Sequence record: LC739535.1
DNA from: Escherichia phage phiWec186
Length of the DNA stretch: 64,000 nt
Strand: one strand, 5' to 3'
Shown here: positions 15,625 through 48,475 of the stretch, piece by piece
How positions within the stretch are numbered: position 1 is the first letter of the stretch
Layout of the letters: the number at the start of each line of letters is the position of its first letter
Program-made: the position numbers and the translations under genes
Notes under the pieces: generated by a model
Seen by the model: only the letters and a program-made list of their open reading frames with translations
What the model was told of the DNA's origin: nothing
Database searches by the model: none

Positions 15625-15637
15625 GAGGAGAAATAAT

Positions 15638-15859
15638 ATGGGTGTTGTTGCAGGTGTTCTGGCAGTAGTTATCGTGTTTGTTCTGGCTTTCCTGATTAGT
15701 ATGATTCCAGCATGGCTTCTGCTGCTGGCTTATAACTACGTTGTTGAAATGATGGGTCACACAGATATCACTGTTCCTATCACCTTCTGGACTGTGGTGT
15801 GTGTGGCATTTATCATGGCTGTACTACGTGGGATCTTTTCCTCAAGTTCTTCAAAATAA
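15638..15859 (+). CDS. small membrane protein
   Basis: Two hydrophobic helices; SD AGAGGAG. Confidence 0.5.
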   Translation: MGVVAGVLAVVIVFVLAFLISMIPAWLLLLAYNYVVEMMGHTDITVPITFWTVVCVAFIMAVLRGIFSSSSSK

Positions 15860-15862
15860 GTG

Positions 15863-15890
15863 TTGACAAGGTTTTAGAATAGAGTAAGAT
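15863..15890 (+). promoter_or_regulatory. sigma70-like promoter TTGACA-N16-TAAGAT
   Basis: gtgTTGACAag context as at 1035 and 20909; followed by a gcgggga/tccccgc hairpin in the 5' UTR of the TerC gene. Confidence 0.5.
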
Positions 15891-15940
15891 GTATCACATG
15901 AGGCGGGGAGTGGTTCCCCGCAAAGAGAAAGGAGAAAATA

Positions 15941-16915: not shown

Positions 16916-16922
16916 TACCAAT

Positions 16923-16947
16923 GAACCTCCTTCGGGAGGTTTCTTAC
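16923..16947 (+). terminator. hairpin, possible weak terminator
   Basis: gaacctcc-ttcg-ggaggttc stem-loop, weak U-tract. Confidence 0.35.
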
Positions 16948-16963
16948 TAACATAGGAGGAATT

Positions 16964-17314
16964 ATGTCTGTATATTTTGACGATGTTCAGGAATATGTTT
17001 GGTGTCTTTCTGGCACAATCTCGGAAGTAGAAGCTGCGATTCAAGAGGTTTTTCCTTACGCTTATGTAGAAGTTAAACAGGCACCTCCTATGGATCTTCC
17101 CCCTAATGTGGAAGCTTGTTGTGGTTCCGGCGAGGGTACAGTCATCCCAGTTCTGCGTTACGAACTACAAGCAGCAAGTGCAAATGTCGATGATATTATT
17201 ACAGAAATTAAGGCGTATGGTTTCTGGACCTCTCCTTACGCTAAATGGGATAACTCTGACACTTGGGATTTATTCTTCTGGGATAATGAGACAGATGACG
17301 AGGTATTTCTGTAA
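16964..17314 (+). CDS. hypothetical protein
   Basis: SD AGGAGGA. Confidence 0.55.
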   Translation: MSVYFDDVQEYVWCLSGTISEVEAAIQEVFPYAYVEVKQAPPMDLPPNVEACCGSGEGTVIPVLRYELQAASANVDDIITEIKAYGFWTSPYAKWDNSDTWDLFFWDNETDDEVFL

Positions 17315-17556
17315 TGAAAGTTGTTTGGGTTGTGTTTGAAAATATTTGTTTTGCAATAGGTTTGTTCGTCATACTTTTTGTGTTGACAAACGTGATCAAT
17401 GGTAGTAAAGTATCCCTATACAAAGACGGGGAGCAGATTTACTGCTTCTCTGGAGATTTCAAACACACCTGTGTTAATATGCAGAAAGAAGAAACTCCAC
17501 ACCAGAAGTCAAGAGAAGATTTTGATTGGTGGTCACTACTTAATAACTTAAGATGA
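17314..17556 (+). CDS. small membrane protein
   Basis: TAATG overlap; one TM helix. Confidence 0.45.
   Translation: MKVVWVVFENICFAIGLFVILFVLTNVINGSKVSLYKDGEQIYCFSGDFKHTCVNMQKEETPHQKSREDFDWWSLLNNLR
17383..17411 (+). promoter_or_regulatory. candidate internal promoter TTGACA-N17-TAAAGT
   Basis: tgtgTTGACAaa context inside the 17314 ORF. Confidence 0.3.
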
Positions 17557-17565
17557 GGAGAAAAT

Positions 17566-18435
17566 ATGAAAAATATTCAGCCATTACCTGTAGTTGGGGA
17601 TTTGTATTTCTTATCTGGTACGGGTTATTCCCCAGAAGCATTAGAAGTTAACAAGAACGTCTTCCGAGTGAAAGAAATAAGAGAAGAATGTAATGAAATT
17701 GTTTTCGAAGGTATTACTAATGGAGTTCTTCAGTATGCAGAGATGCGTAGCTGCTTCCAGCAACCTTTCCGCCCGTTGGCAGACGAGTATAAGATTGCGG
17801 TAAATATTGATGATCTTAAAAAAGAACCAGGGTTCGAAGCGTTCTCTACTTTTATGGAAGATACGTATGTGGATGTAAAGAGATCTAACCTTTTCGCGGG
17901 GGATAATTTCCCTCACTTTGTGTCAGAGAAAAGTGATGGTTTTTCCGACTACGTGGATGCTGTAAACTATGATGTTTCTGAATTGACAGGAGAGCAGGAT
18001 TATCTTCTGCTGTCTCCTAAAGATTTCATGCGCGTAATGTATGCCGTAGCCGAACAGAAAAAGAAGAAAGAAAAGCTTGTAGCCAAAAAAGTTAAAAAGG
18101 TTAAAGGTAAACGTGCCAAAGGTGTTCCAGAACGTAAGCGCACCGTAAATAAGGCGACAGTCTTCTTTACCAGCGGTGAGCAATATACGATCAAAGGTTT
18201 TAAAGAAGTGGGTTACACTGCTGGCGGAAACCTTCTGTTCTTCACAGTTGCAGAAGAAGGAGAAACTTTTATCCGTTTTTCCAATATGTGGGAAATGTCT
18301 GTAGAAGATATTAAAAGTGTTGTTGTTTTAGGTGTACATAAGAGTTTCATTATTAATCAAATCTCTGATTTCAGTGCACACTTGACAGCACCAGATTTCG
18401 AAACTACCACAACAAGCTTTAACTTCAAGGTGTAA
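17566..18435 (+). CDS. hypothetical protein with Lys-rich segment
   Basis: SD GAGGAGAA; internal KKKKEKLVAKKVKKVKGKRAK stretch. Confidence 0.55.
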   Translation: MKNIQPLPVVGDLYFLSGTGYSPEALEVNKNVFRVKEIREECNEIVFEGITNGVLQYAEMRSCFQQPFRPLADEYKIAVNIDDLKKEPGFEAFSTFMEDTYVDVKRSNLFAGDNFPHFVSEKSDGFSDYVDAVNYDVSELTGEQDYLLLSPKDFMRVMYAVAEQKKKKEKLVAKKVKKVKGKRAKGVPERKRTVNKATVFFTSGEQYTIKGFKEVGYTAGGNLLFFTVAEEGETFIRFSNMWEMSVEDIKSVVVLGVHKSFIINQISDFSAHLTAPDFETTTTSFNFKV

Positions 18436-35274: not shown

Positions 35275-36183
35275 ATGTCCGTAATTAATACTGAAACTGA
35301 TCGTAAAGGCAAAACTGTAACTTATGCAACTGGTGTTGTAGACTACGTTAAACTGGATAAATTCGCAGAGCCTAAAACCTTCCAATGGGATGGTAAGTCG
35401 ATTGTTTCTACTCACCGTGCTTCACTCGTTCTGAAAGAAAAGGGTGCCAAGCAGGATGCAAAAGGGACGTGGATTAGCCTGGGTGATATTGAACTGAAAG
35501 AAGGTTACGAAAATCTTCAGGTTAAAGATGGTGATACTTGGATCACTATCGAAAAAGGTGTTGAAGTTAGTATTGATATCGACAAAGTTGATACCAAAGG
35601 CGACAAAACTTACTACAATACCAAGAAATCTCGTATCACTGTTCTTTCTACTGAAGGTGTTCAGAAGAAAGAAAATAAATCTGGTGGGACTGGCGTTTCA
35701 GGTAATACTGGAAACAAACAATCCTTCAAAAAACGTGATACCGTAGGTCTTGAGACTGGTCATGCAGTTAACGGAGCTTTGGAACTGATTCGTAATGGTG
35801 TGAAAGGTGAAGCGTTTGATATTGCAGGTGTGGTTCAGTCTGCTACTGTGACTCTGAAAGCTGAAGTGGCTAAAGAGCGTGGCGTAGATATCAGTGATTA
35901 TGATCTGGGGGCTTCTGTTGGTCACGCTGTTCTGAATGCCTGTAAAGATCATTCCGGTAAGACTGTTTCGGTAGAAGATTTGATTGAAACTGCTCGTGAA
36001 GTTCTGGCACTTTCTGACAAGGTAGCTAATGCCATTCGTGGCGCAGCAGAACAACCTAAGAAAGAAGAAGCCAAGAAAGAGCCTAAGAAGGAAGAACCGA
36101 AGCAGGAGCCTAAACAAGAACCTGCTCCTCAACAAAATCCAGAAGAACCTCCAATGGACTTCGATGATGATATTCCATTCTGA
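35275..36183 (+). CDS. ssDNA-binding-like protein with E. coli SSB-type C-terminal tip
   Basis: Ends in PPMDFDDDIPF after a Pro/Glu/Lys-rich linker; ATG at 35275 after AGAGGAG. Confidence 0.55.
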   Translation: MSVINTETDRKGKTVTYATGVVDYVKLDKFAEPKTFQWDGKSIVSTHRASLVLKEKGAKQDAKGTWISLGDIELKEGYENLQVKDGDTWITIEKGVEVSIDIDKVDTKGDKTYYNTKKSRITVLSTEGVQKKENKSGGTGVSGNTGNKQSFKKRDTVGLETGHAVNGALELIRNGVKGEAFDIAGVVQSATVTLKAEVAKERGVDISDYDLGASVGHAVLNACKDHSGKTVSVEDLIETAREVLALSDKVANAIRGAAEQPKKEEAKKEPKKEEPKQEPKQEPAPQQNPEEPPMDFDDDIPF

Positions 36184-36211
36184 TCTTATTGATTTATAAA
36201 GAGTTTTTATA

Positions 36212-36247
36212 AAAGAAAAGGGAACCTTTGCGGGTTCCCTTTTTTAT
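36212..36247. terminator. bidirectional rho-independent terminator at the strand switch
   Basis: A-run, gggaacc/ggttccc hairpin, T-run; lies between convergent genes. Confidence 0.7.
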
Positions 36248-38922
36248 TAGTCGTAATATTTCAAACCTGTAATAAACTTCGATCCCCAATCCGCACTTGC
36301 GGCGGTGAACGTCAACATCCAAGTTGTAGCTGTACCAGTGAAGACCTCTCGTTGCACAGTACCATCAGTGTGGTAAATGTCCACGCCAGTATGTCCATTC
36401 TTAGGAATAGTGAAGGTAACAGCACTGGTAGTGTCTCGTGCATAAGAACAAACAAATGGTGTCCCCGCCCAGACTGGATTTGTCAAATCACCCATCTCAA
36501 GTTGTGGAACCCAAGCAATAAGACCTGCCGTACCATCTCCTGCGAAAGTGTCTGATCCACTTGCATTCAAAGCTATAATCTCATAGGTTATAGATGCTTG
36601 TTTGGCAACTGTCACTTTGTGTAGAATTACACGATACCAACCATTCCCCATATCGATTATGTTTGCATCTGCACCTGTAAATGTTCCAGCTACAAGATCA
36701 TAAGTCCCTTCGTTAATCTCATCTCCTGAAGTCAATTTGAGTTTCACTTTAGTGATCCCGTCTGGCTTCAAGAATACGGATGCCGCCCAGTGCTTACCTG
36801 CTGTAATATCAGAAGCTGTATTCACTGCTGATAAAATATGTTGTCCTGAAGTTGTAGAAGGTGTTAACTTGTAAGTGTTAGCCGTAGTTCCAATCGGAGA
36901 GTTGATTGTTGATGCTGTGACTGTCAAGTTCGTCTTCAACCACGGGGAAGCTGTTGTCAAGTTATTGTTGATAAAGATATGTGTACGGTTGGCTGCTACA
37001 ACACGTCTACCTTGTGGAGTTGTACCAACATATTCTAAAGGTGCTACGGGAGCAGAACTCTCTGTAGGTACAAGGATATCTCCAGAAGTCCTGGCATAAC
37101 GGTTACTCCTGTTGACCTTTACATCCACCGGAATAGTTTCTTGCGTCAAATCATAGTCCATCACAATCACCACAGCATTCACTGCGAGATAAGAACTATC
37201 TTCGGCAGTTACCACGCCTTGATAAGTTGCTCTACAACCAATACGACAATCTCCATCAGTAACCGCTGTAATAACGCCTGTAACGGGGTCAACTGTTGCT
37301 ACTGTAGGGTCGTTAGAGAAATACTCAACAACCATACCAGGGAGGTTTTCTGCCCCTGCTGGGGTTATTTCTGCCACCAATGTTTGCGTTGTCCCTTCAT
37401 CCATAGCTGAAAGACTTGGAGTATACACTTCCAACGTTGAAGCATAACCTCCAGAGCTATCTGATAAAGTTGTTCCTGCTGCATTCAGTGCTGTCATCCC
37501 CGCATCAAAACCACCTTCAGCCACAAACGTCATCAAACCAGAAGCAGATATTGTCATGTACGCTGGGGCAGATGTTGTGTAAGCTTCATTGAAGATTTTG
37601 GCTCCTGAAGGACTTACTGAATAGGTTAACTGTTTGCTCCCACCAACAATACAAATACCTAAAGAATCTGTAGTTAAACTGGTAGCCAACTCTGATCCTA
37701 AGATCGAATCTTGTGAAATAGGTGCGAACTTGTTAGAATTCAACGTCCCATTAAACAGAGGATTGGTCTTACCATCAACAGTAACACCAGAGTAAAACAG
37801 ATTACCATCGTAGACAAAGAAAGTTGCATGGTAGCCTAACTGGTTAGTCACATCCAGATTCTGACTGTGGACACTTGTTAGTTTGCTCATGTCCCAACTC
37901 GGAACACCTTCGGGCTTAAGAGGCTTCTCAACAACCAAAGGATCTGTTGCCAGAGATGCGTAACCAACACCTAAGTTTCCTGTGTAGTTTTTACCTACAG
38001 CCCACAAACTGTTATTAATACTTAAGAAGAAAGCGTGGCGACTCATTGGGAAACTCCATGCAGAGAAACCGCCAGAGAAGTTGCTTACTTTCGTATAAGT
38101 TGTCGCAGTGTTAGAACGTGCATACAAATAATTCGTTGTTCCAGTACCGCCAGAGGTATCTCCAATTACCAATGTCTGGGAAACTGTGTTAACGTAATCT
38201 TTCACATAAACTGTTTCGGTAGAAGATATAGTCGCAGTAACGAAAGCTGTTGTTGTACTGTTGTTACCTGCCATACCTTTGCTTGCACCGCAAACACGTA
38301 ATGAACCAACGTTGTTAAGGTAAGAACATTGGTTGTATCCTGCATCAAATGCTAAAGCAACAGAAGTTATTTGACGTGGACTTGGGATTTGGTTAGTATT
38401 ACTTGAACCAAGGCTCCCCACTGTGTTTTGTCCTGAACCATAAAGCACTCCATTGTTCATGAGCCACAAGGTATTATTATAACCCCCTTTAACCTCTTTC
38501 AGGTTGGCTAAGGTTATGATTGAGGTAATAGACGATGGGAAGCTGGTCCACGTAGTCATGCAAACATCAGCGCCGCCAGCGGCTGTAGATCCAACAAGAC
38601 CTGCTAACAAGCCAGCATACTGCCAACCACCACTTTGAAGCTTGATAACGAAGCAACGATCTGCCGGAAATATATCTTCTGCTGTTGTTGATGCCAAATG
38701 GAAGGTAGAGTATTTTGCTGTACGTGTGCCGTCAGCAATCTCTCCGAACACATTATCCCCTTGAGTGAATAAACGCCCATCGTTCAAGAGGAGAGCTAAA
38801 CTGGTTTTAGAGTTGCCAGAAGCGTCTGGGTAATCTAAAGTTATTACTTTCTTGATTATTCCTGCTGGAAGTGGAACTACACCTGTGCTGGTCATAATCA
38901 TCATTACTGGAATTGGAAACAT
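36247..38922 (-). CDS. tail fiber / adhesin-like protein
   Basis: 891 aa Ser/Thr/Gly-rich beta protein with an Ig-like segment; SD GGAGGA; location in the fiber cluster. Confidence 0.5.
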   Translation of the reverse strand: MFPIPVMMIMTSTGVVPLPAGIIKKVITLDYPDASGNSKTSLALLLNDGRLFTQGDNVFGEIADGTRTAKYSTFHLASTTAEDIFPADRCFVIKLQSGGWQYAGLLAGLVGSTAAGGADVCMTTWTSFPSSITSIITLANLKEVKGGYNNTLWLMNNGVLYGSGQNTVGSLGSSNTNQIPSPRQITSVALAFDAGYNQCSYLNNVGSLRVCGASKGMAGNNSTTTAFVTATISSTETVYVKDYVNTVSQTLVIGDTSGGTGTTNYLYARSNTATTYTKVSNFSGGFSAWSFPMSRHAFFLSINNSLWAVGKNYTGNLGVGYASLATDPLVVEKPLKPEGVPSWDMSKLTSVHSQNLDVTNQLGYHATFFVYDGNLFYSGVTVDGKTNPLFNGTLNSNKFAPISQDSILGSELATSLTTDSLGICIVGGSKQLTYSVSPSGAKIFNEAYTTSAPAYMTISASGLMTFVAEGGFDAGMTALNAAGTTLSDSSGGYASTLEVYTPSLSAMDEGTTQTLVAEITPAGAENLPGMVVEYFSNDPTVATVDPVTGVITAVTDGDCRIGCRATYQGVVTAEDSSYLAVNAVVIVMDYDLTQETIPVDVKVNRSNRYARTSGDILVPTESSAPVAPLEYVGTTPQGRRVVAANRTHIFINNNLTTASPWLKTNLTVTASTINSPIGTTANTYKLTPSTTSGQHILSAVNTASDITAGKHWAASVFLKPDGITKVKLKLTSGDEINEGTYDLVAGTFTGADANIIDMGNGWYRVILHKVTVAKQASITYEIIALNASGSDTFAGDGTAGLIAWVPQLEMGDLTNPVWAGTPFVCSYARDTTSAVTFTIPKNGHTGVDIYHTDGTVQREVFTGTATTWMLTFTAASADWGSKFITGLKYYD

Positions 38923-38936
38923 TTTTATCCTCCATA

Positions 38937-38960
38937 AAAGAAAAGCCCCTTGCGGGGCTT
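38937..38960 (-). terminator. rho-independent terminator (minus strand)
   Basis: gcccc-ttgc-ggggc hairpin with T-run on the minus strand. Confidence 0.6.
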
Positions 38961-38963
38961 CTA

Positions 38964-41009
38964 TTATCGTGTTACAACAACCATGTCCACGATATTACCC
39001 GCACCTGGATACGTCAACTGTAGAATTGTCACAGCACTTGCTGCTGTTGCTACATCCGTATCGTTCAGTGCTCCGTAAGACGCATCCAGCGTCACGGTGT
39101 GTCCCGTTGTATCTTGCAGAAGGTAAATCATTGCAGAGAAAGCTTTCGGTTTTGTAGCTCCTGTAACTCCAGGCCATGCCCCGATCGTCAATGCATCTGT
39201 AACGTTGACCACGTACATATTGGTCGCCCCAGAAGGAGTCCAAGAAGTACCTGAACTTGCTACGGTAGTAGTTTCAAGTTCAAGATAACCTGCTGTTACT
39301 TTTGTAGGCGTTATTGCCTCTGTAGGATCGCCAGCCGAGATTTCAATCCAATCACCATCAGAACGCCCGTAGGTCAAACCATCTTCAGGAGCTTCAGGAA
39401 TGCTTGGAAGTGTACCAACTTGCGTCCAAACAGTAGCAGCGGTTTTCTTAAAGACAGCCCCTGTTGCAGTGTTGAAAGCGTAGTCGTTAATAACACCTTC
39501 GGCATTGGTTGGGTTGGTTGCAGCTACAAACCATTGCGCCCCGTCCTTACCATCTGTTCCATTAGTCCCTGGTGTACCGTTAGTTCCGTTTGTCCCGTTA
39601 GTACCTGCTGGACCTGGATCACCCTTATCCCCTTTGTCACCTTTATCGCCTTTTATGCTACCCATGTCAACAAAAGAGGCGGTGTTCGTATCTTTGTCGT
39701 AAGTGTAAATATAAAGGTTACTGGTGTCTTCTGTCAGATAAGCATCGCCATAGTTGTTGTACGTTGGCAGCGCAGAACCGTTTGGTACATGACCTTTGGC
39801 AGTGATAGATGTTCCACCAAGGCTTCCTACGTTCATCCAGTCTGTAGCGCCTTCTACCCAAACATACAAGTTGTTGTTGATAATATATGCATCACCAACT
39901 TCCCCTGTTGCTGGGAGTTCAGATTCATTAGAGAGAACGTCTAAGATTTCCAAGCCAGAGCCTGTTGCCCCAACTGGACCTTGCGGACCTATTTCACCCT
40001 GATCGCCCTGTTCACCTTGAATCCCTTGGTCGCCTTTCTCACCTTTGATCGCTGCGATAAAATCTACTTCCGTCCCTGTGTTACCAATATCTAACCAAGA
40101 TTGGTAAGCTGACTTCCCTTCGTCACCATCTGTCCCATCAAGACCATCAGTACCTGCTTCACCCTGCGGACCTTGTGGGCCTACAATGTTACCCATGTTA
40201 ACCCAGTCTTCACCATTGGAGACATAAAGATATCCACCAATAGAGTAAGCTTGGCTTACGTTATTTGGGTTAGCTGCTGGTAGGTTAGCAGTAGAGTCAA
40301 GATCCCCACGGTAATCAAAACCGTTCGCATTAAGACCTGCTGCCCCTTGTGGACCTTGAGGACCAACGTCTCCTCGATCTCCTTTCAGAGATGCCAAGTA
40401 GTCGTAAATTGTACCAGTATTACCTACTGACAACCACACTTGGTACGCTGACTTCCCTTCTGGACCCAAAGAAGAAATCATTTTCCAAGTTGCGCCGTCC
40501 CAAGCGTAAATGGCATCTCCGACAATCCAACCGTCCCCTAAAGCATTACCTGTTGTAGGTAATTGGTTGATGTTGTTCAAAGATCCTTTGATATTTAATT
40601 GTGCGCCAGTGTCACCTTTAAGAGACGCTAACCATTGTTGTTCTGTGCCTACGAAACCATTATCCAGAGCAATCTGGTAGGCTGATTTCCCAGCTTCAGG
40701 GATTTGAGTAGAGATGTTATTGATCTCTTGCTGCATTATTGCAAAACGGGCATTAATTACTGCGATATCATCAGCAGTACCTACGCTCTCCCATCCAGTG
40801 GAGTTAATACCACCTGTGCTTGCCGGAGTAGAGTTCTCAGGAACAACTTTCGGAAAAGCACCTTTCCATTTATAATAGTTACCGTCATCATCTAAAAGCA
40901 GAACTTCACGGGCATTACGTAAAGTAAATCCCGCTGCAAAGCTTCGACGTTTACGGTACGTAGCTTCGACCATATCTGCAATCGAGCTATTCGGTCTTGT
41001 TAAAAGCAT
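38964..41009 (-). CDS. collagen-like repeat tail fiber protein
   Basis: Several G-X-Y triplet runs (GDKGDKGDKGDPGPAGTNGTNGTNGTPG, GPQGPQGEAGTDGLDGTDG, GEKGDQGIQGEQGDQGEIGPQGPVG). Confidence 0.65.
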   Translation of the reverse strand: MLLTRPNSSIADMVEATYRKRRSFAAGFTLRNAREVLLLDDDGNYYKWKGAFPKVVPENSTPASTGGINSTGWESVGTADDIAVINARFAIMQQEINNISTQIPEAGKSAYQIALDNGFVGTEQQWLASLKGDTGAQLNIKGSLNNINQLPTTGNALGDGWIVGDAIYAWDGATWKMISSLGPEGKSAYQVWLSVGNTGTIYDYLASLKGDRGDVGPQGPQGAAGLNANGFDYRGDLDSTANLPAANPNNVSQAYSIGGYLYVSNGEDWVNMGNIVGPQGPQGEAGTDGLDGTDGDEGKSAYQSWLDIGNTGTEVDFIAAIKGEKGDQGIQGEQGDQGEIGPQGPVGATGSGLEILDVLSNESELPATGEVGDAYIINNNLYVWVEGATDWMNVGSLGGTSITAKGHVPNGSALPTYNNYGDAYLTEDTSNLYIYTYDKDTNTASFVDMGSIKGDKGDKGDKGDPGPAGTNGTNGTNGTPGTNGTDGKDGAQWFVAATNPTNAEGVINDYAFNTATGAVFKKTAATVWTQVGTLPSIPEAPEDGLTYGRSDGDWIEISAGDPTEAITPTKVTAGYLELETTTVASSGTSWTPSGATNMYVVNVTDALTIGAWPGVTGATKPKAFSAMIYLLQDTTGHTVTLDASYGALNDTDVATAASAVTILQLTYPGAGNIVDMVVVTR

Positions 41010-41049
41010 TTATTTACTCCTGATTAATCATTCGTTTATCGTTGGGAGT

Positions 41050-41073
41050 TAAAAAGGGGGACAAGCCCCCTTT
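41050..41073 (-). terminator. rho-independent terminator (minus strand)
   Basis: ggggg-acaag-ccccc hairpin flanked by an A-run on the plus strand. Confidence 0.55.
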
Positions 41074-41076
41074 CAC

Positions 41077-44000
41077 TTATGTCGTCGGAGTATCAATCAC
41101 CGGAGTAGGACGAATTACCGCAGTGTTACCAACCGCAACGTTGCTTGCGCTATTAGGAATAGTTGTGATACGTACTCCTGCTGCTGTCGCTGTTTGGATA
41201 GGATCTGCGATATCCACCTTCACTGGGTTGGTCCAAGTATCGTTATCCTGATAAGGGGCACGAGTGATTACTGTGTCCAAATCAGATCCACCTGGACCTG
41301 CACCTGCGATACGGATACGTGTACCTGCTGACAGTGGGTAATGATATAACCAAGAAGCATTTGTCGCTGTACCGTTAGGTGTCAGGTTCTGCACAATCGA
41401 TTTATCACCAACATTTGTCGCTCGGATACCGAAGGCTGGAATGTCTGGAATGTACGCACCACTTGTTGTTACAAGGAAGAACGTATTGTCTGCTTTAACG
41501 ATAATATCCCCTTTATCGAATTCTTTCCCAGTTGGGAAGTGCATCCCGTCAATGTTGCGACCTGGGATTGCTTCGATGTAGTAAGATTTACCAGTAGAGC
41601 CTACCAGAGCACCAATACCACCTGCGATGTTCGTATACATGTTCGCTTCAACGTTACAGTTGATACGATGAATATCCGAGTAACGGCAACGACTCCATTG
41701 AGGACGTCCAGTTACCATTGTGTTTCCATTCGGATAGCAGTTTACGTTCACCATTTCCAGAACTGACTTCTCTCTACGGAAGAATCCATCGTAGAAAGTA
41801 CCTGGACCAGATTCCGGTTGACCTACACACTCGAAAGAGTTACAAGTGATGTTAGCCATTGACAACCAAGAAGCGATACCAAACAATTGCAGAGCGTTAC
41901 AACGGATGTTATCGAAGCTAACGCGGTTCTCAAAACCTGGACCCGCTGATACACCTGCGAAGACACGTCCTGTAGCTGTATGTACGTTACGTACCGAGTA
42001 ATTGAAGCAAGGGTTTGATGGGCGACCCTGTGCAGGAACAACAGGTTTACCATCCTCGCCTAAAACTGCGTTCGTACCCCATTCCAGATAGATCATACGG
42101 ATTGCACTTGGCAACGTATTGTCGTCTGTAATAGGCTCACCATAAACACCATCGATCGTGAAATCTTTACAGCCGTACATTACAACAGCGCCTGTTGCAA
42201 GCCCTGTACCAACAGAAACTGTCTGGTCAGGATCACCGTGGATGTTCTGGATAGAAATGTTACGACCAACTTCTACGTGAACAATCTGGCGGCAACGTTT
42301 CGCAAATACGTTACGGATTGTAATGTTCTTACAATACTGCGTATCTGGAATGTCATAACCGTATGGACCTTTACCTGCTACACCGATACCGATACCCCAG
42401 TTAGAAAGAGGAATTGGTGCGTTCGTTCCGTCGATGTGAGACAAGTAGATGTTCTCAATAACACAACCTTCATCGTAGTGCTTGTTGATTACGTTCAGTT
42501 CGATTGCATCGCCCTGCATATCCATAAACGTCAAGTTACGGAAGACACCGCGACTAACTGGTTCGCCAGTACCTTGTTGAAGGATACCGTAAAGTCCGTT
42601 TTTAAATGTACAGTTGTCAATCTCAAAAGTACCTGGAATTGGGTTGCCCTGGAATACCAAGCTACCAACCTGTCCTGGACGAGGTGCACCATCCCACAAG
42701 CAGTCATAGATACGCACATCGCCACCCCAATACATTACACGGGAGTTGCGGAAAGTCGTACCTTCCACTTTACAGTTCTGTAGACGGTAGTCACGTTGTC
42801 CACGGAAGACACCACCAAGGAGGGTGATCCCAGTAATATCAAAAGAACTTGTAGTGAAGGTCATATCACAACCATAAGCATTCAGGATCTTGCTCTTGGT
42901 TGCTGCTGTTGCCACGAGAGCCGCTTGGAAAGCTGCTTCTTGAGTAGCGTACACTGCACTGTTTGCAAACTCGGACAGGTAAACAACATCAAACAGATCG
43001 TCAAACTTACCACCGTGTGGAGTTAACAGACCTTCTGTGTTTGTCAGTACCCAAGCATTTGGACCTACGCCACCAGAGGAGGCAAGGGTGTCACTCGCAG
43101 AGAGAGTTTTTGGCAAAGTGCCAGCCCAACGGTAACGACCTGCACCCATACCAATAGTCTGGTGTTTAAGGGTCAGGGTAATTTCATTACCGAAACTGGT
43201 AGGCAGATGTACATATTGCTGACGTTCAACTGCTAATGCTGCCAAGTCAACAGTACCAGAAGAGTGGGTAAGAACACCAGTATCTGATAAGCTAACAAAT
43301 GTCCCAGTTAAACCAGGTGGCAGGGTGTAAGCTATTTGGTTAGTGGCATCATACAGGGCTTTCAGACCTATTAAAGCTTGTCCTGATTTTGCGTAAGCCA
43401 CTTCATAATTCAGGAAACCATATTTACGAGCGATTGTCTGAAGAGGAACAGCGTTCATATCTTCGGTCAATGTTTCAGTAGTTGTTTCCAGGTTAGAAAT
43501 TCGGTTTTCGAGGTTAGGATCGTTTTCTGCGCTTGCTACAATCTTACCGATGTAAGCAAACAACTGATTAGGTAATCCGGTTGCAGGATCATGTCCAAGT
43601 GGTTCGGACAAGATGATCTGACTGTTCTCAATACGGAATGCATCACCCACAATCTGGATAACGCCGTTGATAGTCACAATAGCACTATCGAACACGTAAG
43701 GAGGACTGATTACTTTTTCATAACCTGTTGCAGAGGTATACAACCAAGGAATAACTTCACTTGGGAGTTGTTCAGTCTGCATTCCCCACAGCACCCAGTT
43801 ATTGTCCCCGACTGGAGTCCCTTGCATTGGGATAGGGTTCACCAGTGTTGCTGCTGGAGCGTAGTAGTATCCACTCAAGATTCCGTTCTGATAAAAACGG
43901 AGTTGGTTGAATACTGTTTCATTAGTCCCTTGCGCCCAGGCAATAGGACTTTTGAAGTAAAAGTTATCAACCAAAGCCTTACGTAAAGTCGGAATCAATC

Positions 44001-44127
44001 CTGATTCCGTATCAATACTTTCTGTTGCGCTTCCGTTGATGATATCGTGTATCTGGTTAGAAGAAAAGATTACCAGATCTACGCCCTGTTCCAGGGACGT
44101 AGCGGGATATGTTGGGAATAGTGTCAT
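41077..44127 (-). CDS. tail spike protein with beta-helix (pectate-lyase-like) domain, candidate depolymerase
   Basis: 1016 aa; periodic beta-helix-type repeats rich in N/G/V/I (NCTFKNGLYGI..., NITIRNVFAK..., NISIQNIHGD...). Confidence 0.55.
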   Translation of the reverse strand: MTLFPTYPATSLEQGVDLVIFSSNQIHDIINGSATESIDTESGLIPTLRKALVDNFYFKSPIAWAQGTNETVFNQLRFYQNGILSGYYYAPAATLVNPIPMQGTPVGDNNWVLWGMQTEQLPSEVIPWLYTSATGYEKVISPPYVFDSAIVTINGVIQIVGDAFRIENSQIILSEPLGHDPATGLPNQLFAYIGKIVASAENDPNLENRISNLETTTETLTEDMNAVPLQTIARKYGFLNYEVAYAKSGQALIGLKALYDATNQIAYTLPPGLTGTFVSLSDTGVLTHSSGTVDLAALAVERQQYVHLPTSFGNEITLTLKHQTIGMGAGRYRWAGTLPKTLSASDTLASSGGVGPNAWVLTNTEGLLTPHGGKFDDLFDVVYLSEFANSAVYATQEAAFQAALVATAATKSKILNAYGCDMTFTTSSFDITGITLLGGVFRGQRDYRLQNCKVEGTTFRNSRVMYWGGDVRIYDCLWDGAPRPGQVGSLVFQGNPIPGTFEIDNCTFKNGLYGILQQGTGEPVSRGVFRNLTFMDMQGDAIELNVINKHYDEGCVIENIYLSHIDGTNAPIPLSNWGIGIGVAGKGPYGYDIPDTQYCKNITIRNVFAKRCRQIVHVEVGRNISIQNIHGDPDQTVSVGTGLATGAVVMYGCKDFTIDGVYGEPITDDNTLPSAIRMIYLEWGTNAVLGEDGKPVVPAQGRPSNPCFNYSVRNVHTATGRVFAGVSAGPGFENRVSFDNIRCNALQLFGIASWLSMANITCNSFECVGQPESGPGTFYDGFFRREKSVLEMVNVNCYPNGNTMVTGRPQWSRCRYSDIHRINCNVEANMYTNIAGGIGALVGSTGKSYYIEAIPGRNIDGMHFPTGKEFDKGDIIVKADNTFFLVTTSGAYIPDIPAFGIRATNVGDKSIVQNLTPNGTATNASWLYHYPLSAGTRIRIAGAGPGGSDLDTVITRAPYQDNDTWTNPVKVDIADPIQTATAAGVRITTIPNSASNVAVGNTAVIRPTPVIDTPTT

Positions 44128-44133
44128 TTATAA

Positions 44134-44469
44134 TTAACCCTTACTCTGTGTACGTTTAGTAATATCCTCTAACATCATCTGGATCGTTGCATTCTTGAGG
44201 TCCATGATTTTTTCAATCTTCTGCTCAAGAGTAGTATTGTTCGCCAGTAATGTAGAGTTAATCTGATTCAGCATTTGAGTAAGTTCAGCTTTCGTTGCGT
44301 AAGTGGATTCGACGAAAACAAGTTTCTTTTCCAACTCACGGGCCTTGTCTTCGACCTTCTCCAAATCAACACCAAACTTATCTATTTTTTGTTTAAACAG
44401 GAACCAGATTAAACCGATTAGAGGGATGATTGCGTCCTTAGCAAGACCCCAGACTTCTTGAAATTCCAT
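44134..44469 (-). CDS. membrane-anchored coiled-coil protein
   Basis: N-terminal TM helix IIPLIGLIWFLF followed by a charged helical region. Confidence 0.45.
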   Translation of the reverse strand: MEFQEVWGLAKDAIIPLIGLIWFLFKQKIDKFGVDLEKVEDKARELEKKLVFVESTYATKAELTQMLNQINSTLLANNTTLEQKIEKIMDLKNATIQMMLEDITKRTQSKG

Positions 44470-44480
44470 ATTTGCATCCC

Positions 44481-45026
44481 TTATTTTGTTGGTAAGGTAG
44501 GCCAGTTAACCTCGTAAGGATATCCCTCTTGAACAGGAACACGGTTCAATTCCACAACATAAACCTGGAGTTGCTTCAGTTCCGCAAGTTCTTCGGGTGT
44601 CGCTATCTCAAGGTCTTTTGCATATTGCAAAGGAGTGATAAGGGCAACGGCTGCTTCTTGCTTATTCTTTATTTCAGCAGAAACCTTGACAATCATTTGT
44701 TCACGACTGTACTCTTTATCTTTCAGTGTAAGAGTTTCTAAGTCTAAAACCTTGTCACGGATATCTTCGAAACTTGTAATCTCAAAATCAACTTGTGCAA
44801 GAGACATGTTTTCGGGACACAACAGAGTAGGATCTGTGTTCCAAAAAACTATACGGTTCTGATCGTCAAACACAACTTTCATTTTGTCGTTTTTTAACAG
44901 ACCATCGCGTAATTCATACCAATCAAAACCCTGGTCGCAAAGTAGGAACAAAATGTTCTCTACTTCTACGAGTTCTCTTAGGGCGGGATCTTCTGGGATA
45001 TACTTCTTAAAATTAGTGTAGAGCAT
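44481..45026 (-). CDS. tail fiber assembly protein (Tfa-like)
   Basis: C-terminal ATPEELAELKQLQVYVVELNRVPVQEGYPYEVNWPTLP resembles Tfa chaperones; sits immediately after the fiber gene. Confidence 0.65.
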   Translation of the reverse strand: MLYTNFKKYIPEDPALRELVEVENILFLLCDQGFDWYELRDGLLKNDKMKVVFDDQNRIVFWNTDPTLLCPENMSLAQVDFEITSFEDIRDKVLDLETLTLKDKEYSREQMIVKVSAEIKNKQEAAVALITPLQYAKDLEIATPEELAELKQLQVYVVELNRVPVQEGYPYEVNWPTLPTK

Positions 45027-46088
45027 TTAGCCTCCAATATCGTACCAGTTTCCGTTCACGTTTCGCTGGAGACGTTTGAAGTAAACACCACCAATGTTAT
45101 CCGCAGAACTACGGCCTGTTTCCTGAACAATAATACCAGAAAGAACATAGCCGGAAGAACAAACGTATGTCCAAGACACTTCGTTACCTGGTGGGTAATA
45201 TACGCCTTGGCTGGTATAACGTATGTCACGAACAAAGTTACCATTCGCATAGTTATAGTTGTTACTGATCTGGTTTTGCAAGTTACTGTTCACGCTGTCA
45301 ATACGTGAGTTTAAGTTGTTGTTAACGTTGTTCAGGTTGTTTTGAACAGAGTTAATATTCGTTTGCAAGGTGTTCTGTAAAGAGCTTAAACGCGAGTTCA
45401 AGTAATCTAAACGAACCAGAGCATTGCCGTTCCCAGTATCTTGTCCACTATTAGATCGTGGATTATCAATCAGAACATAACCGCCATCATACAAACGTAC
45501 TGCACAGGATACGTTACCATTGGTAGGGTTCCTGCGATATATGTAAAGGTGTCCTCCGTTATTATATTCGGAAGAGATTTCACCGTTAGTTTGACCTGCA
45601 AAGTTTTTAAAGAAGATAGTAGCAGGATCTGAAGTAGATGTACCATTTACATAAATATCTCCACCATAGATAGCACCGCCGCCATCGCGTTTAACCAACA
45701 CGTTAGGGGTTACTGTCGTGCTTGTTGCATCTGTGATGTTTGAAGATAAGTGGTTGTGGCTATTATCTACAACTTGAATAGAAAGTGTTACTGCTGCATT
45801 CCCGTTCCAGGTTACTTCACCTGTTGCATCCCCTGACATTGTTATTTTAGTACCAACCAGAGGAAGATACGTATTTGGTAATGTTGGAAGAAACTCGTCA
45901 ACCAGATAACGAATCCATAATCCGTTATTGTTGAGTACCCAATTCATTTCTTCACAGGTCATGATTTGACCGTAATCCATACCCACGGTACGAATAATTT
46001 CTTTAGGTCGAATCTTGTTTAAGTTTTGTGTTCCTGGGAGGGTAACTGTTTCTACAGCCCAATCAGGATAGTATATTGGCTTCGCCAT
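45027..46088 (-). CDS. tail fiber protein
   Basis: 353 aa; N/S/Q-rich repeats, Gly-rich beta region; followed by Tfa. Confidence 0.55.
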   Translation of the reverse strand: MAKPIYYPDWAVETVTLPGTQNLNKIRPKEIIRTVGMDYGQIMTCEEMNWVLNNNGLWIRYLVDEFLPTLPNTYLPLVGTKITMSGDATGEVTWNGNAAVTLSIQVVDNSHNHLSSNITDATSTTVTPNVLVKRDGGGAIYGGDIYVNGTSTSDPATIFFKNFAGQTNGEISSEYNNGGHLYIYRRNPTNGNVSCAVRLYDGGYVLIDNPRSNSGQDTGNGNALVRLDYLNSRLSSLQNTLQTNINSVQNNLNNVNNNLNSRIDSVNSNLQNQISNNYNYANGNFVRDIRYTSQGVYYPPGNEVSWTYVCSSGYVLSGIIVQETGRSSADNIGGVYFKRLQRNVNGNWYDIGG

Positions 46089-46097
46089 TGGAACTCC

Positions 46098-46727
46098 TTA
46101 ATCGATTTGTTTCAGAAGCATACACATGCGTCCAGTTTCATCCCCTGTGGATTCCAAGTACAAGGAACCCAAACCACCAATACCATGAGGATCTTTGGTA
46201 GCGTAATAAGAGGTGAATCCAAAAGCTGATCCGGCTTTAGCTCCCAGTCGGTAGTTGCTTATAATTGGGAACACACTTAAAAGTTGCTCAAGAGCTTGAT
46301 CAGACTGAAGACACAAGTTATAAAAGAACACATCAAAGGATTTATTCAATCCCACATATGTGTTAATTGTATCTCGTTTTGTACCTGTGAAACGGGCGAA
46401 GATATCAATAATGTCCCCACGAGTCCCCGAAGAGGCAACACGATAAGCCCTGATTTTTAAAATTGTGCGGTACTCTTCATCATCAGAACCATTTCGTTCA
46501 ATACCCATCTCTTCACCAAGGAGATCAAGATAATCTCCCGTGGCTGTAGATATTAAACGGTGTTTAGCAAGATAGATCATTGCCTGATCTATCTTTTGCT
46601 TTTCACTTGATACGATGTAGAGGAGCTTGACAATGTTAGGGGAAGATTTAAAATCTTCAATCAACAGATCTTTAACGTCTTCATTGATATTCTCCCAAGT
46701 CGTTACATGGTCAACACTCACTGCCAT
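46098..46727 (-). CDS. baseplate protein (gpI-like position)
   Basis: Position between the J-like gene and the fiber, as in P2/Mu baseplate operons. Confidence 0.4.
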   Translation of the reverse strand: MAVSVDHVTTWENINEDVKDLLIEDFKSSPNIVKLLYIVSSEKQKIDQAMIYLAKHRLISTATGDYLDLLGEEMGIERNGSDDEEYRTILKIRAYRVASSGTRGDIIDIFARFTGTKRDTINTYVGLNKSFDVFFYNLCLQSDQALEQLLSVFPIISNYRLGAKAGSAFGFTSYYATKDPHGIGGLGSLYLESTGDETGRMCMLLKQID

Positions 46728-46729
46728 TT

Positions 46730-48217
46730 TTAGACTCCATACTCGTAGGAAATGTTATCAAGGTCGAAAGACGGGACAATATTGTAGGCAGGAACAATGT
46801 TCCCTTCTGTATATTTACTGTCGTCTTCATTATTAAGTTTAACATAAACACGGAGAGAAGTCAAGCGCCCAAAAGCAAGTGCTGCATAAATAACGCCTTT
46901 AATCTGGTCGTTAGTTACAGAAGAACCCAATTCGAAGTAGGCTTGCAGGTTATCCAGTGCTTTAACAATGTTTTCTTTCTCTGTTCCACTTAACGTTGTA
47001 CCATTGATTGTCTGGTATACAAGTTTCAAGGAGTACGTTGCAGTAGCACCAGGAGAGAAGCGGATAATCTCTTGTCCACCGTCTTCCGTCATGACAGTAA
47101 TGTTAGTTGTGCCATACGTCAAGGTATTGATTGGTTTAGTGTCGTAAATCACTTTAGCGACTTCTTCGGCACTCCCACCGTACACGATTGTCTGGAAACT
47201 CATTGCAGGTGCATGTTCCTGATCGTGGATTGTCGGGTTGTCGTAAATCTTAACCTTAGTTACGCCATCAGTTTGCAACAAGGCTTTAACGATAGCTGCG
47301 CGTGTACCTGCGTTTGCTTCATCAAGGTTATCGTTGAAACGTGAGCGGAACTCTGCGTCTGTCTCTACATCTCGTCCTGAAGAGAAAGCATAGAAGTTAC
47401 CAGAATCAAGGTAGCCTGTGAAGGTTGAAGAGATTCCCGAAATGGATTCCACACCTACCGGATTGTACCCTGCTTCCGCCCCTACCACCGGAATTTCACT
47501 CCACTTCATCCCAACAGGGACAGAAGCGTAGAATTTTATTGGTGTTACCAAACCAACAGGTTCTGCATCTCCCGCTGCTGCGAAGCCAACATAAACGTTA
47601 CTTGCGTCTGTGTGGATTAAACCCTGATCCGTAGTGGAGAGGTTGTCTCGAATAAAGTTTGCAAGATCTGTAATGAATGTCGAAGACGCTGGAGAGAGTA
47701 CACGACTGTTCAGACCACCATCATTTGCACTTTGTGCGTAGAAAGTTATGTTAGCCACACCTGTAGCTGTTGCATTCGCACGCGAGATTTGATATGCTGC
47801 GATCTTAGCATTCAACATGGTAGGTGCGCTGACATAATAGTTCATGTCGTTGTCTGCATTAAAATACGTATCTGTACCAAGTTCAAAAGTCCAAGGGGCT
47901 TTGTTGTTGCTTTTCACATAAGCAAAACCTGAACCAGGTGCAGCGGCTGAACGGTAGAAACCACGTTTGGAGAAGATCTCATCAAGGTAGATACCTTCGG
48001 CACCATCCAGTGTCTGGGTATTATAAACCCCTTGCATTCCTTCCCATAAGGTGTAGTCGGTATAAGCAATAATACGGAACAACTGCCCGAAGACAGTATC
48101 CTCCGAAGTCGCTGCATCAGCACCAAAGGTGTTCTTAAGTGCAGTCATGTAGTTGTTAAGTACATCGTCGAATGTCGGGATTACAAATCCCGCATCGGTT
48201 AAACCATATTCATCCAT
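46730..48217 (-). CDS. baseplate J-like protein
   Basis: 495 aa; C-terminal ETDAEFRSRF...GTRAAIVKALLQTDGVTKVKI resembles the baseplate J family; gene order. Confidence 0.5.
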   Translation of the reverse strand: MDEYGLTDAGFVIPTFDDVLNNYMTALKNTFGADAATSEDTVFGQLFRIIAYTDYTLWEGMQGVYNTQTLDGAEGIYLDEIFSKRGFYRSAAAPGSGFAYVKSNNKAPWTFELGTDTYFNADNDMNYYVSAPTMLNAKIAAYQISRANATATGVANITFYAQSANDGGLNSRVLSPASSTFITDLANFIRDNLSTTDQGLIHTDASNVYVGFAAAGDAEPVGLVTPIKFYASVPVGMKWSEIPVVGAEAGYNPVGVESISGISSTFTGYLDSGNFYAFSSGRDVETDAEFRSRFNDNLDEANAGTRAAIVKALLQTDGVTKVKIYDNPTIHDQEHAPAMSFQTIVYGGSAEEVAKVIYDTKPINTLTYGTTNITVMTEDGGQEIIRFSPGATATYSLKLVYQTINGTTLSGTEKENIVKALDNLQAYFELGSSVTNDQIKGVIYAALAFGRLTSLRVYVKLNNEDDSKYTEGNIVPAYNIVPSFDLDNISYEYGV

Positions 48218-48474
48218 TACTCATCCTCTTTGTTGTGTTCAGGGGTGGAAGACCTACCCCAACGCAGGTCTATTAGATTTTTCATTAGTCGTGAGGGAGT
48301 GACCATAAAAACAAAAGCCCAGCCCATCCATTCAGGAATTTCTTTTTCTATTCCTAAAAAGATGAACATGCCTGTCATTGTCATCATACCTACGGCGTTC
48401 CATACTTTAGTGGAACTTACCCCGTTCCCAGGGTAAGTGCAGAACATGCCACGTAAAAATTTTTTAATGCTCAT
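48217..48474 (-). CDS. hypothetical small hydrophobic protein
   Basis: 85 aa with a hydrophobic core. Confidence 0.4.
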   Translation of the reverse strand: MSIKKFLRGMFCTYPGNGVSSTKVWNAVGMMTMTGMFIFLGIEKEIPEWMGWAFVFMVTPSRLMKNLIDLRWGRSSTPEHNKEDE

Positions 48475-48475
48475 A

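Follow-up and report, generated by a model that had tools for sequence, protein, structure and literature searches.

Domain map of the host-surface proteins in the tail-fibre operon of Escherichia phage phiWec186, including a probable branched tailspike-fibre complex

The region between positions 36247 and 46088 of a 64,000-nucleotide stretch of Escherichia phage phiWec186 (LC739535.1; the whole stretch is called the window, and all coordinates are positions in it) is the distal part of a baseplate/tail-fibre operon and encodes four different host-surface proteins: a putative colanidase-type tailspike (1016 residues), a collagen-like fibre (681 residues), a short tail fibre with its chaperone (353 and 181 residues) and an adhesin (891 residues). 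The tailspike and the collagen-like fibre probably form one branched fibre and not two independent organelles, since the tailspike carries the anchor of a phiTE/rV5-type long tail fibre, the collagen-like protein carries the tip, and the two contain an XD3-like domain and a tailspike head domain, respectively. The best explanation of the whole, to which we assign a probability of roughly 0.6, is a four-protein apparatus in which this branched tailspike-fibre with its predicted colanidase acts together with the short fibre and the adhesin. A sequence-only reading of the same DNA had described four distinct fiber/spike genes. Distinct and non-redundant they are, and not paralogs by sequence comparison: all-against-all BLASTP of the four large proteins returned a single shared 28-residue motif (1016- versus 681-residue protein, E 0.004), which rules out redundant paralogs. 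The 891-residue protein is by its fold not a fibre, and the four are probably not four independent fibres, as two of them are likely parts of one branched unit.

There is nothing new in the locus as such: the phage has been described in print, the gene set is ordinary for the Stephanstirmvirinae, and the multi-fibre "Swiss army knife", a known hallmark of the subfamily, is textbook for phi92, phAPEC8 and the rV5 relatives. The added value lies in the domain map (Table 1), the correction of the 891-residue "fiber" and the hypothesis of a split fibre in a branched complex.

Modules of the tailspike and the collagen-like fibre

The N-terminus of the tailspike is an anchor of the type known from gp241 of phage phiTE. 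Residues 11-114 match phiTE gp241 residues 14-120 (PDB 9cuy_g, E 2e-18), a part modelled on the baseplate wedge and sheath initiator (PMC11972413), and residues 10-114 match residues 6-112 of Murica gp027 with 46% identity (E 9e-25). The corresponding Pfam family, PF26208 (Phage_phiTE_241_N), is present in close homologs, and the tailspike is predicted to attach to the wedge and sheath initiator through this anchor. The stretch that follows resembles tailspike TSP4 of phage CBA120: residues 126-360 align with TSP4 residues 265-477 at 34% identity (BLASTP, E 5e-29), an alignment spanning the TSP4 domains XD3, D1 and D2. The XD3 portion of this alignment pairs residues 126-180 with TSP4 residues 265-324, the limits of XD3 in TSP4 being about residues 253-335 (PMC8825819). 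When searched alone, the XD3-like domain matched the tail adaptor 7y22_e and the N-terminal region of CBA120 TSP2 (6w4q, residues 18-70), with E values of 1e-3 to 3e-2, and the AlphaFold2 model places beta strands there with a predicted local distance difference test score (pLDDT) of 72-85. The tandem D1-D2 head domains gave much stronger matches (PDB 4oj5, 5w6f, 5w6h and 4qnl, E 1e-25 to 6e-29), and Pfam assigned Tail_spike_N to residues 299-361.

The C-terminal part of the tailspike is homologous to the catalytic domain of gp150, the colanidase of phage phi92, whose apparatus comprises gp141, gp142, gp143, gp147, gp150 and gp151. Residues 424-999 match residues 95-623 of gp150 (PDB 6e0v; phmmer, E 1e-78), and the motifs GDAIELN, NWGIGIG and HVEVG are retained in the alignment. 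The protein also matches PHROG 6117 "colanic acid degradation" (E 3e-265) and, over residues 498-661, NCBIfam WcaM, a host protein of the colanic acid cluster (E 6e-27). The latter score, 94 bits, is far below the equivalog cutoff of 808, which rules out an ortholog of WcaM and leaves a homologous domain only. The AlphaFold2 model (26 sequences, mean pLDDT 72) shows repeated short strands over residues 414-800, with block-mean pLDDT mostly 75-95 over residues 380-770, and its best Foldseek match in the PDB is again 6e0v (E 3e-34; 30% identity in the structure-based alignment). The next matches were the tailspikes of CBA120, Sf6, HK620 and P22, AlgE epimerases and PL6 lyases, all of which are right-handed beta-helices. 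Two candidate catalytic carboxylates, D540 (in GDAIELN) and E619 (in HVEVG), are aligned in 6e0v and invariant in 17 homologs down to 27% identity.

The beta-helix and the depolymerase type proposed by the sequence-only reading are thus borne out by both homology and structure prediction. On this basis, the protein is a strong candidate polysaccharide depolymerase, and its likely substrate can be named: it would be a colanic-acid-degrading tailspike. phi92 gp150 hydrolyzes the beta-1,4 Glc-Fuc bond of colanic acid, according to Xu 2025 as cited in PMC13450770, and by homology the WcaM-like beta-helix may cut colanic acid and so clear the slime layer. In colanidases of Justusliebigvirus, the genus of phi92, the first 200 residues are 73-76% identical to the tailspike and the catalytic part is 27-34% identical; those examined (803-806 residues) lack the D1-D2 head insert of the 1016-residue protein.

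The collagen-like fibre begins with a tailspike head domain, Pfam PF18668 (Tail_spike_N; residues 11-77, E 1e-18, 67 bits versus a cutoff of 25). It matches PDB 9vvr, 9d84, 4oj5, 5w6h and 4qnl and is closer to CBA120 D2 than to D1. The collagen-like G-X-Y runs noted earlier were confirmed: they occupy residues 210-227, 277-300, 323-352 and 454-492, with 37 triplets in all, compared with a mean of 4.8 and a maximum of 22 in 2000 shuffles, and Pfam Collagen scores 52.9 bits (cutoff 27.2, E 3e-14). A motif scan found four LP...GDAY...W hairpins in the shaft. Residues 473-558 and 536-558 match T4 fibritin and its foldon (E 0.002-0.008 for the last hairpin, residues 536-558), and homologs of the fibre match Pfam Fibritin_C, one of them (from locus L007) above the cutoff (E 6e-11). 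The distal tip matches the other end of the phiTE protein, with residues 569-678 aligned to gp241 residues 683-790 (9cuy_g, E 3e-11), and residues 556-681 are 44% identical to residues 458-581 of Murica gp027 (E 2e-26). A fibre homolog with 56% identity carries PF26209 (Phage_phiTE_241_C). Judged from its sequence, the fibre is without a recognisable baseplate anchor of its own.

One branched organelle or separate organelles

In phiTE gp241 the anchor is homologous to the N-terminus of the tailspike and the tip to the C-terminus of the collagen-like fibre, and the same pattern is seen in gp027 of the vequintavirus Murica (581 residues). The difference is that both ends sit on one polypeptide in these phages, with no XD3-like or head domain in the comparisons made, whereas in phiWec186 each belongs to a gene of its own, the two genes being neighbours; the anchor gene has an added enzyme and the tip gene an added collagen shaft. 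The domains placed between the two ends have counterparts in the branched complexes of CBA120 (TSP1-TSP4) and G7C (gp66-gp63.1). There, too, a hub protein carries an anchor, a gp10-like XD3 domain and a D1-D2 head before its beta-helix, and the partner protein begins with a Tail_spike_N head domain. The XD3/head-domain pair is the joint of the branched complex in both phages (for CBA120: PMC8825819). The charge polarity is also as in CBA120, with a net charge of -4 in the XD3-like domain and +4 in the first 35 residues of the fibre.

The most economical reading of a fibre without an anchor, an XD3-like/head-domain pair and the known CBA120/G7C joint is that the fibre rides on the tailspike. 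In the proposed model, the head domain at the N-terminus of the fibre has its most likely docking site in the XD3-like domain of the tailspike, in the way that TSP1 docks on TSP4 in CBA120 and gp63.1 on gp66 in G7C. Tailspike and fibre would then form one branched organelle that combines an enzyme with a fibre, in effect the one long tail fibre of phiTE and rV5-like phages divided in two, with the anchor on the enzyme and the tip on the fibre. The likeness to CBA120 and G7C has its limits. Here one XD-like domain is present and neither XD1 nor XD2, the anchor belongs to the phiTE gp241 type and not to the TSP4 AD type, and the partner is a collagen-like fibre and not a second beta-helix spike; the phiWec186 complex is predicted from sequence. 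The XD2-XD2 pairing and the four spikes of the CBA120 type were not found, with no second XD domain and one candidate partner in the locus.

Gene context was surveyed in loci that included 11 metagenomic loci and that of the justusliebigvirus KMB37. They come from related phages, and the counts are therefore not independent events and are supportive, not statistical proof. All eight genes encoding homologs of the anchor plus the XD3-like domain (residues 1-200) were followed by a gene for a protein of 622-786 residues that is conserved at its N-terminus and variable in the rest. Four of these downstream proteins have Tail_spike_N and collagen, and the other four another conserved N-terminus of ~85 residues. 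Where only the anchor was homologous (residues 1-115), such a downstream gene was lacking in four of five cases. The second kind of N-terminus is found in the metagenomic loci L008, L010, L015 and L016, where the protein encoded after the anchor + XD3-like gene has 735-786 residues, the first ~85 conserved (MVQLTQPKGMVSKETNKEAIARVFG...) and the rest divergent. It would be a second, undescribed adaptor type for a piggy-backed receptor-binding protein.

Several points weigh against a branched complex. The single head domain of the fibre resembles CBA120 D2, whereas it is D1 that contacts XD3. One XD-like domain was detectable, no second XD domain being found in the Pfam, PDB and TSP4 comparisons, and the stand-alone signal of the detected one is weak (E 1e-3 to 3e-2). 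AlphaFold3 models of phi92 gp150 and gp151, each alone, fit the phi92 fiber II density poorly (PMC13450770), and in reviews the receptor-binding proteins of phi92 are said to protrude individually from the baseplate. Because the surveyed loci are related, their counts are not independent, and half of the downstream genes (four of eight) start with the other conserved N-terminus and not with Tail_spike_N. All evidence for the tailspike-fibre complex is drawn from sequence.

The alternative is that of four independent organelles, in which each protein sits on the baseplate separately and has its own receptor, the collagen-like fibre being attached to the wedge or to TfpL (a 943-residue protein encoded nearby) and its head domain serving as a structural neck. 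A review has the receptor-binding proteins of the Stephanstirmvirinae each protrude from the baseplate, and phi92 has three fibre densities per wedge (PMC13450770). The tailspike has a D1-D2 head of its own, so that such domains need not be docking plugs, and the head domain of the fibre is D2-like. We nevertheless regard this arrangement as doubtful: no baseplate anchor can be recognised in the fibre, two neighbouring genes here share between them the anchor and the tip that phiTE or Murica have in one protein, and the XD3-like module and a downstream fibre gene tend to occur together. The candidate proteins, TfpL and the short fibre among them, also outnumber the three fibre densities.

The branched reading can be taken one step further. 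There is about an even chance that a single ancestral long tail fibre gave rise to both the colanidase and the collagen-like fibre, its two halves, which are rejoined on the virion through the XD3-like/head joint, and that a gp150-gp151 heterocomplex is the phi92 "fiber II", which the cryo-electron microscopy study states as unidentified (PMC13450770). If true, the heterocomplex would explain why neither protein alone fits the fiber II density. Which genes build which fibre in these phages has been called unclear (Maffei 2021; PMC8594841), and the split-fibre homology together with the XD3/head pairing offers a concrete, testable gene-to-fibre assignment.

The adhesin and the short tail fibre

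The 891-residue protein, labelled a fiber by the sequence-only reading, is not one according to domain searches and structure prediction, which give a seven-bladed RCC1-like beta-propeller, two Ig-like domains and a lectin-like domain of the spike type known from gene transfer agents (GTAs). A classical trimeric fibre was ruled out by the fold (AlphaFold2, Foldseek). The Pfam scores of the propeller are just above threshold (RCC1, 24.4 bits versus 21.7; RCC1_2, 24.6 versus 22), and the whole-domain family PF25390 stays below it (45.6 versus 150). In the AlphaFold2 model (33 sequences) the pLDDT of the propeller is mostly >85, and Foldseek retrieves UVR8 and the RCC1-like domain of HERC2 (E 1e-15, target-normalised TM-score 0.62-0.69). 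The two Ig-like domains (residues 410-582) are likewise modelled with high pLDDT. At the C-terminus, NCBIfam NF048003 (GTA_spike_fiber) matches residues 644-813 with 72.8 bits against a cutoff of 36, and the domain matches Rcc01080 (ghsB; PDB 6tb9) of the gene transfer agent RcGTA with E 3e-14. The setting is different: Rcc01080 is a protein of 325 residues on the capsid vertices, whereas here the domain ends an 891-residue propeller-Ig-Ig protein encoded in a tail-fibre operon. Capsular polysaccharide is the ligand of the RcGTA spike fibre, and residues 2-10 alone anchor this protein to the particle (PMC10218006). The last 300 residues are poorly modelled, and the model of the C-terminal domain is unreliable, with pLDDT <50 for residues 585-695, which counts against the assignment; being too poor to interpret, it was set aside as a basis for the reading. 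The adhesin may be a beads-on-a-string protein, made up of a short conserved N-terminal peptide, the propeller, the Ig-like pair and the lectin-like domain.

The constant parts of the adhesin family are an M-x-P-x-P leader, in which M1, P3 and P5 are nearly invariant, and the Ig pair. Many homologs have the N-terminal two thirds in common and differ in their C-termini, that of phiWec188 being a DUF285 domain. In a sliding comparison, residues ~590-891 show 98-100% identity to phAPEC8 and only 20-28% to phiWec188, a sister species; the C-terminal cassette is, as judged from these identities, a recent exchange. TfpM1, the published name of the adhesin, is stated to be lacking in the Justusliebigviruses (PMC12695924), yet in KMB37 the same position (15459-18278 of locus L005) holds a 939-residue "carbohydrate esterase" that shares the leader, the Ig pair (62%) and the GTA-like C-terminal domain (63%); an unrelated middle region of ~445 residues replaces the propeller. 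Among the BFVD matches to the adhesin model are many phage proteins with RCC1-like propellers that are named "DNA condensation protein" or "regulator of chromosome condensation" (Cronobacter phages CR9 and GAP32, Erwinia phages, PBECO4), the same fold being named tail fibre in Littlefix and PollyC, phages of Pseudomonas. Names that refer to chromatin were probably carried over from the eukaryotic family.

The adhesin might also have no part in receptor binding by the tail and instead decorate the head, the neck or the whiskers, as a polysaccharide adhesin similar to Hoc or to a GTA spike that raises the frequency of encounter with cells or mucus. Its only relative of known location, Rcc01080, is on capsid vertices and binds capsule, the Big_2 Ig-like domains also match PHROG 215 "structural protein with Ig domain" (head and packaging), nothing in the predicted propeller resembles the N-terminal domain of a fibre that inserts into the baseplate as a trimer, and the gene is the last of the operon, with a terminator-like hairpin ahead of it. 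We consider such a location unlikely, given that the gene is the last of the tail-fibre block in every relative, that the family pattern of a conserved N-terminus and a swappable C-terminus is that of receptor-binding proteins, and that the cryo-electron microscopy model of phi92 has only gp123 and gp124 for the head (PMC13450770); phi92 itself may lack the adhesin gene. The rV5 proteomics paper contained no information on a homolog of the adhesin, and a search of the literature brought up no relevant work on RCC1 propellers in phage fibres.

The 353-residue protein is a short tail fibre with a chaperone beside it, as the sequence-only reading had proposed. It matches the short tail fibre of phiTE (PDB 9cuy_c, E 1e-23) at both ends: the wedge-attachment domain (residues 4-71) aligns with phiTE residues 7-72, which fall within the residues modelled on wedge 1 in 9cuy, and the C-terminal tip (residues 286-353) with phiTE residues 484-554, an Asn-rich coiled coil (residues ~230-275) lying between them. 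The protein also matches PHROG 4465 tail fiber. The 181-residue Tfa protein encoded next to it matches Pfam Caudo_TAP (E 1e-10, 42 bits versus a cutoff of 22) and PHROG 136 "tail fiber assembly protein" (E 1e-34). A fibre gene directly followed by a Caudo_TAP chaperone gene is the arrangement of Mu GpS/GpU, to which Maffei 2021 related the short fibre and chaperone; the same study found the single short fibre of phi92-like phages and Phapecoctavirus closely related to the short fibres of Vequintavirus (PMC8594841). In phi92, the fibres attach to the baseplate wedge gp145-gp146, and fiber III was identified as gp147, the AlphaFold3 model of which was compared to phiTE gp236 and which was proposed to mediate irreversible adsorption (PMC13450770). 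We infer from gene order that the wedge genes next to the short fibre gene are the counterparts of gp145/gp146, and from the order shared with Justusliebigvirus and from Maffei 2021 that the 353-residue protein is the counterpart of gp147. The trimeric short fibre would fold with the help of the adjacent Tfa and plug into the wedge with its first ~70 residues, and by analogy with phi92 gp147, the phiTE short fibre and Mu GpS it is likely a binder of the lipopolysaccharide (LPS) core for irreversible adsorption.

Between the Tfa and tailspike genes lies a gene for a 111-residue protein that begins with a hydrophobic helix and resembles a coiled coil over the rest. The protein matches PHROG 15210 "lipoprotein" (E 3e-66), the label also given in relatives, but there is no cysteine in the protein and hence no lipobox, which rules out the label. 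It looks, from its sequence, like a single-pass membrane or coiled-coil protein. All 11 metagenomic loci examined have a gene for 108-116 residues at this place, with the short-fibre/chaperone genes on one side and the anchor-bearing gene on the other.

Relatives, host range and gene layout

The region is 100% identical over its full length to phiWec179 (LC739533) and phiWec181 (LC739534), ~92% identical over 91% of its length to phiWec188/190, and ~78% identical at the DNA level to phAPEC8 and ~50 other Phapecoctavirus genomes. The phiWec179 group belongs to the Stephanstirmvirinae, and the genus "Wecvirus" has been proposed for it (PMC12695924). The same genes occur in the same order in phAPEC8 (gp086-gp091, protein identities 76-88%). 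phAPEC8 differs in having two further receptor-binding genes, gp095 (endosialidase-like) and gp096, between the small membrane protein and TfpL, both missing from phiWec179. KMB37 has the same order of wedge, short fibre, Tfa, small protein, colanidase and collagen-like fibre. The endosialidase gp143 of phi92 and the deacetylase-type fibre of Justusliebigviruses (annotated in KMB37) are both absent here, where an RCC1-type TfpM1 is present. The host range also differs, being broad for phi92 and narrow for phiWec179 (PMC12695924).

The sequence-only reading had taken the number of fibres to imply broad receptor recognition. This is contradicted by an infectivity of ~13% for phiWec179, whose apparatus is called less extensive than that of phi92 (PMC12695924), and by the dependence of phiWec179/181/186 on waaT (R1 LPS outer core) and flhD, which was shown with complementation; the phage also requires waaG, and phiWec188/190 depend on waaT and yhaH (PMC12548472). 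Justusliebigviruses with gp141/142/150/151 but without the endosialidase also have a narrow host range, 3-9% (PMC10269720). Taken together with the ~13% of this phage, this means that many fibres alone do not mean broad range, and the locus is a clean counter-example to the rule "more fibres, broader host range."

A comparison of phiWec179 with phiWec188 narrows down the proteins that may account for the different host requirements. The tailspike is 99.3% identical between the two, the collagen-like fibre 95%, the short fibre 98% and Tfa 97%, and the main differences are the C-terminal cassette of the adhesin, TfpL (73%) and an extra gene in phiWec188 for a protein of 688 residues with Calx-beta, NCTSP_N and TIM-barrel_NCTSP domains. 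As the other adsorption proteins are 95-99.3% identical between the groups, these three are, on sequence grounds, inferred candidates for the flhD/yhaH difference, and adhesin and TfpL together may determine the flhD-dependent step that separates this phage from phiWec188. The tip of the short fibre, considered as the flhD determinant from its homology to the flagellotropic phiTE, is unlikely to be so, its counterpart in the flhD-independent phiWec188 being 98-100% identical. After the adhesin cassette, TfpL is the adsorption protein most divergent from phiWec188, with the lowest identity over residues 350-650 and 850-943; it has no match in Pfam and no sequence match in the PDB. Likewise, a 157-residue protein had no sequence match in the PDB.

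Colanic acid is a product of the Enterobacteriaceae at large, so the role of a colanidase is more likely the removal of a barrier than a choice among strains. That the beta-helix protein instead binds without cutting, as an enzymatically dead spike that is hub and adhesin only, is very improbable: the identity of its catalytic part is modest (27-34% to the Justusliebigvirus homologs, 30% to 6e0v in the structure-based alignment), but the 6e0v match (E 1e-78) spans nearly the whole domain with GDAIELN, NWGIGIG and HVEVG kept, D540 and E619 are invariant in the 17 homologs, and the same domain serves as catalytic tailspike in podophage J8-65 and in the Justusliebigviruses, where it is annotated colanidase. 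The domain map also marks modules for host-range engineering, with the anchor and XD3 as constant parts and the catalytic domain, the fibre tip and the adhesin cassette as swappable ones.

The coordinates of all features are collected in Table 1. The open reading frames (ORFs) of 891, 681, 1016 and 353 residues and Tfa exist exactly as the sequence-only reading had given them, and together with the 111-residue ORF they coincide with coding sequences deposited for phiWec179. The GenBank record of phiWec179 has "hypothetical protein" for every gene; the phiWec paper names the proteins of 891, 681 and 353 residues TfpM1, TfpM2 and TfpS1 (PMC12695924), and in the phAPEC8 record the corresponding genes are annotated as tail protein, tail fiber protein, colanic acid degradation, lipoprotein, tail fiber assembly protein and tail fiber protein.

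Table 1. Genes, protein domains and hairpins of the phiWec186 tail-fibre locus (positions in the window)
Feature	Positions	Strand	Basis or remark
891-residue ORF, adhesin (TfpM1)	36247-38922	minus	ORF list
Adhesin residues ~20-400, seven-bladed RCC1-like beta-propeller (predicted)	37723-38865	minus	Pfam, AlphaFold2, Foldseek
Adhesin residues 410-585, two Ig-like (Big_2) domains, conserved family core	37168-37695	minus	Pfam Big_2, E 8e-11
Adhesin residues 586-891, exchangeable C-terminal cassette with lectin-like GTA head-spike-fibre-type domain	36250-37167	minus	NF048003
681-residue ORF, collagen-like fibre (TfpM2; phi92 gp151 type)	38964-41009	minus	ORF list
Fibre residues 11-77, tailspike head (Tail_spike_N / TD-type) domain	40779-40979	minus	Pfam PF18668
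Fibre residues 104-560, shaft: three GKSAYQ modules, four G-X-Y runs, four foldon-like hairpins	39330-40700	minus	motif scan
Fibre residues 569-681, distal tip, phiTE gp241 C-terminal type	38967-39305	minus	PDB 9cuy_g
1016-residue ORF, colanidase-type tailspike (putative)	41077-44127	minus	ORF list
Tailspike residues 1-115, baseplate anchor, phiTE gp241 N-terminal type	43783-44127	minus	PDB 9cuy_g, Murica gp027
Tailspike residues 124-200, XD3-like (T4 gp10-like) small beta domain	43528-43758	minus	CBA120 TSP4 alignment
Tailspike residues 230-369, tandem D1-D2 head domains	43021-43440	minus	CBA120 TSP1/3/4, G7C gp63.1
Tailspike residues 424-999, right-handed beta-helix, putative catalytic domain, WcaM-like	41131-42858	minus	phi92 gp150 homology
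111-residue ORF	44134-44469	minus	between Tfa chaperone and 1016-residue gene
181-residue ORF, Tfa chaperone	44481-45026	minus	start codon abuts 353-residue stop
353-residue ORF, short tail fibre (TfpS1)	45027-46088	minus	ORF list
Baseplate wedge genes	46098-48217	minus	Pfam: 495 residues with Baseplate_J; 209 residues with DUF2612 / Phage_Wedge1
943-residue ORF, TfpL (homolog of phAPEC8 gp097)	48476-51307	minus	PHROG 2871 tail protein
Terminator-like hairpin, 11 pairs	36216-36243	minus	after 891-residue gene
Terminator-like hairpin, 9 pairs and T run	38941-38962	minus	between 681- and 891-residue genes
Small weak terminator-like hairpin, 5 pairs	41057-41070	minus	between 1016- and 681-residue genes

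From the short fibre to the tailspike, the genes are separated by gaps of 0-11 bases. The place of the hairpin before the adhesin gene is also annotated as a terminator in phAPEC8. At 36183-36247 the minus-strand fibre block meets a plus-strand replication block, and the one 11-pair hairpin between them could terminate both directions. Promoter-like sites in the window were not more frequent than in shuffled sequence, and a scan of the window for tRNA genes found none. On the other side of the wedge genes, within the baseplate/fibre module, a hydrophobic protein of 85 residues that resembles a two-helix membrane protein (PHROG 1322 "membrane protein") is encoded on the minus strand at 48217-48476. 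Beside this gene, phiWec179 has neither gp095 (endosialidase-like) and gp096 of phAPEC8 nor the 688-residue gene of phiWec188, and the junction appears to be a variable slot for receptor-binding genes. The G+C content is 0.453-0.458 over 38001-44000, which covers the collagen-like fibre and tailspike genes, versus 0.39-0.44 elsewhere in the window; the increase may reflect Gly/Pro-rich coding or a foreign origin of the modules.

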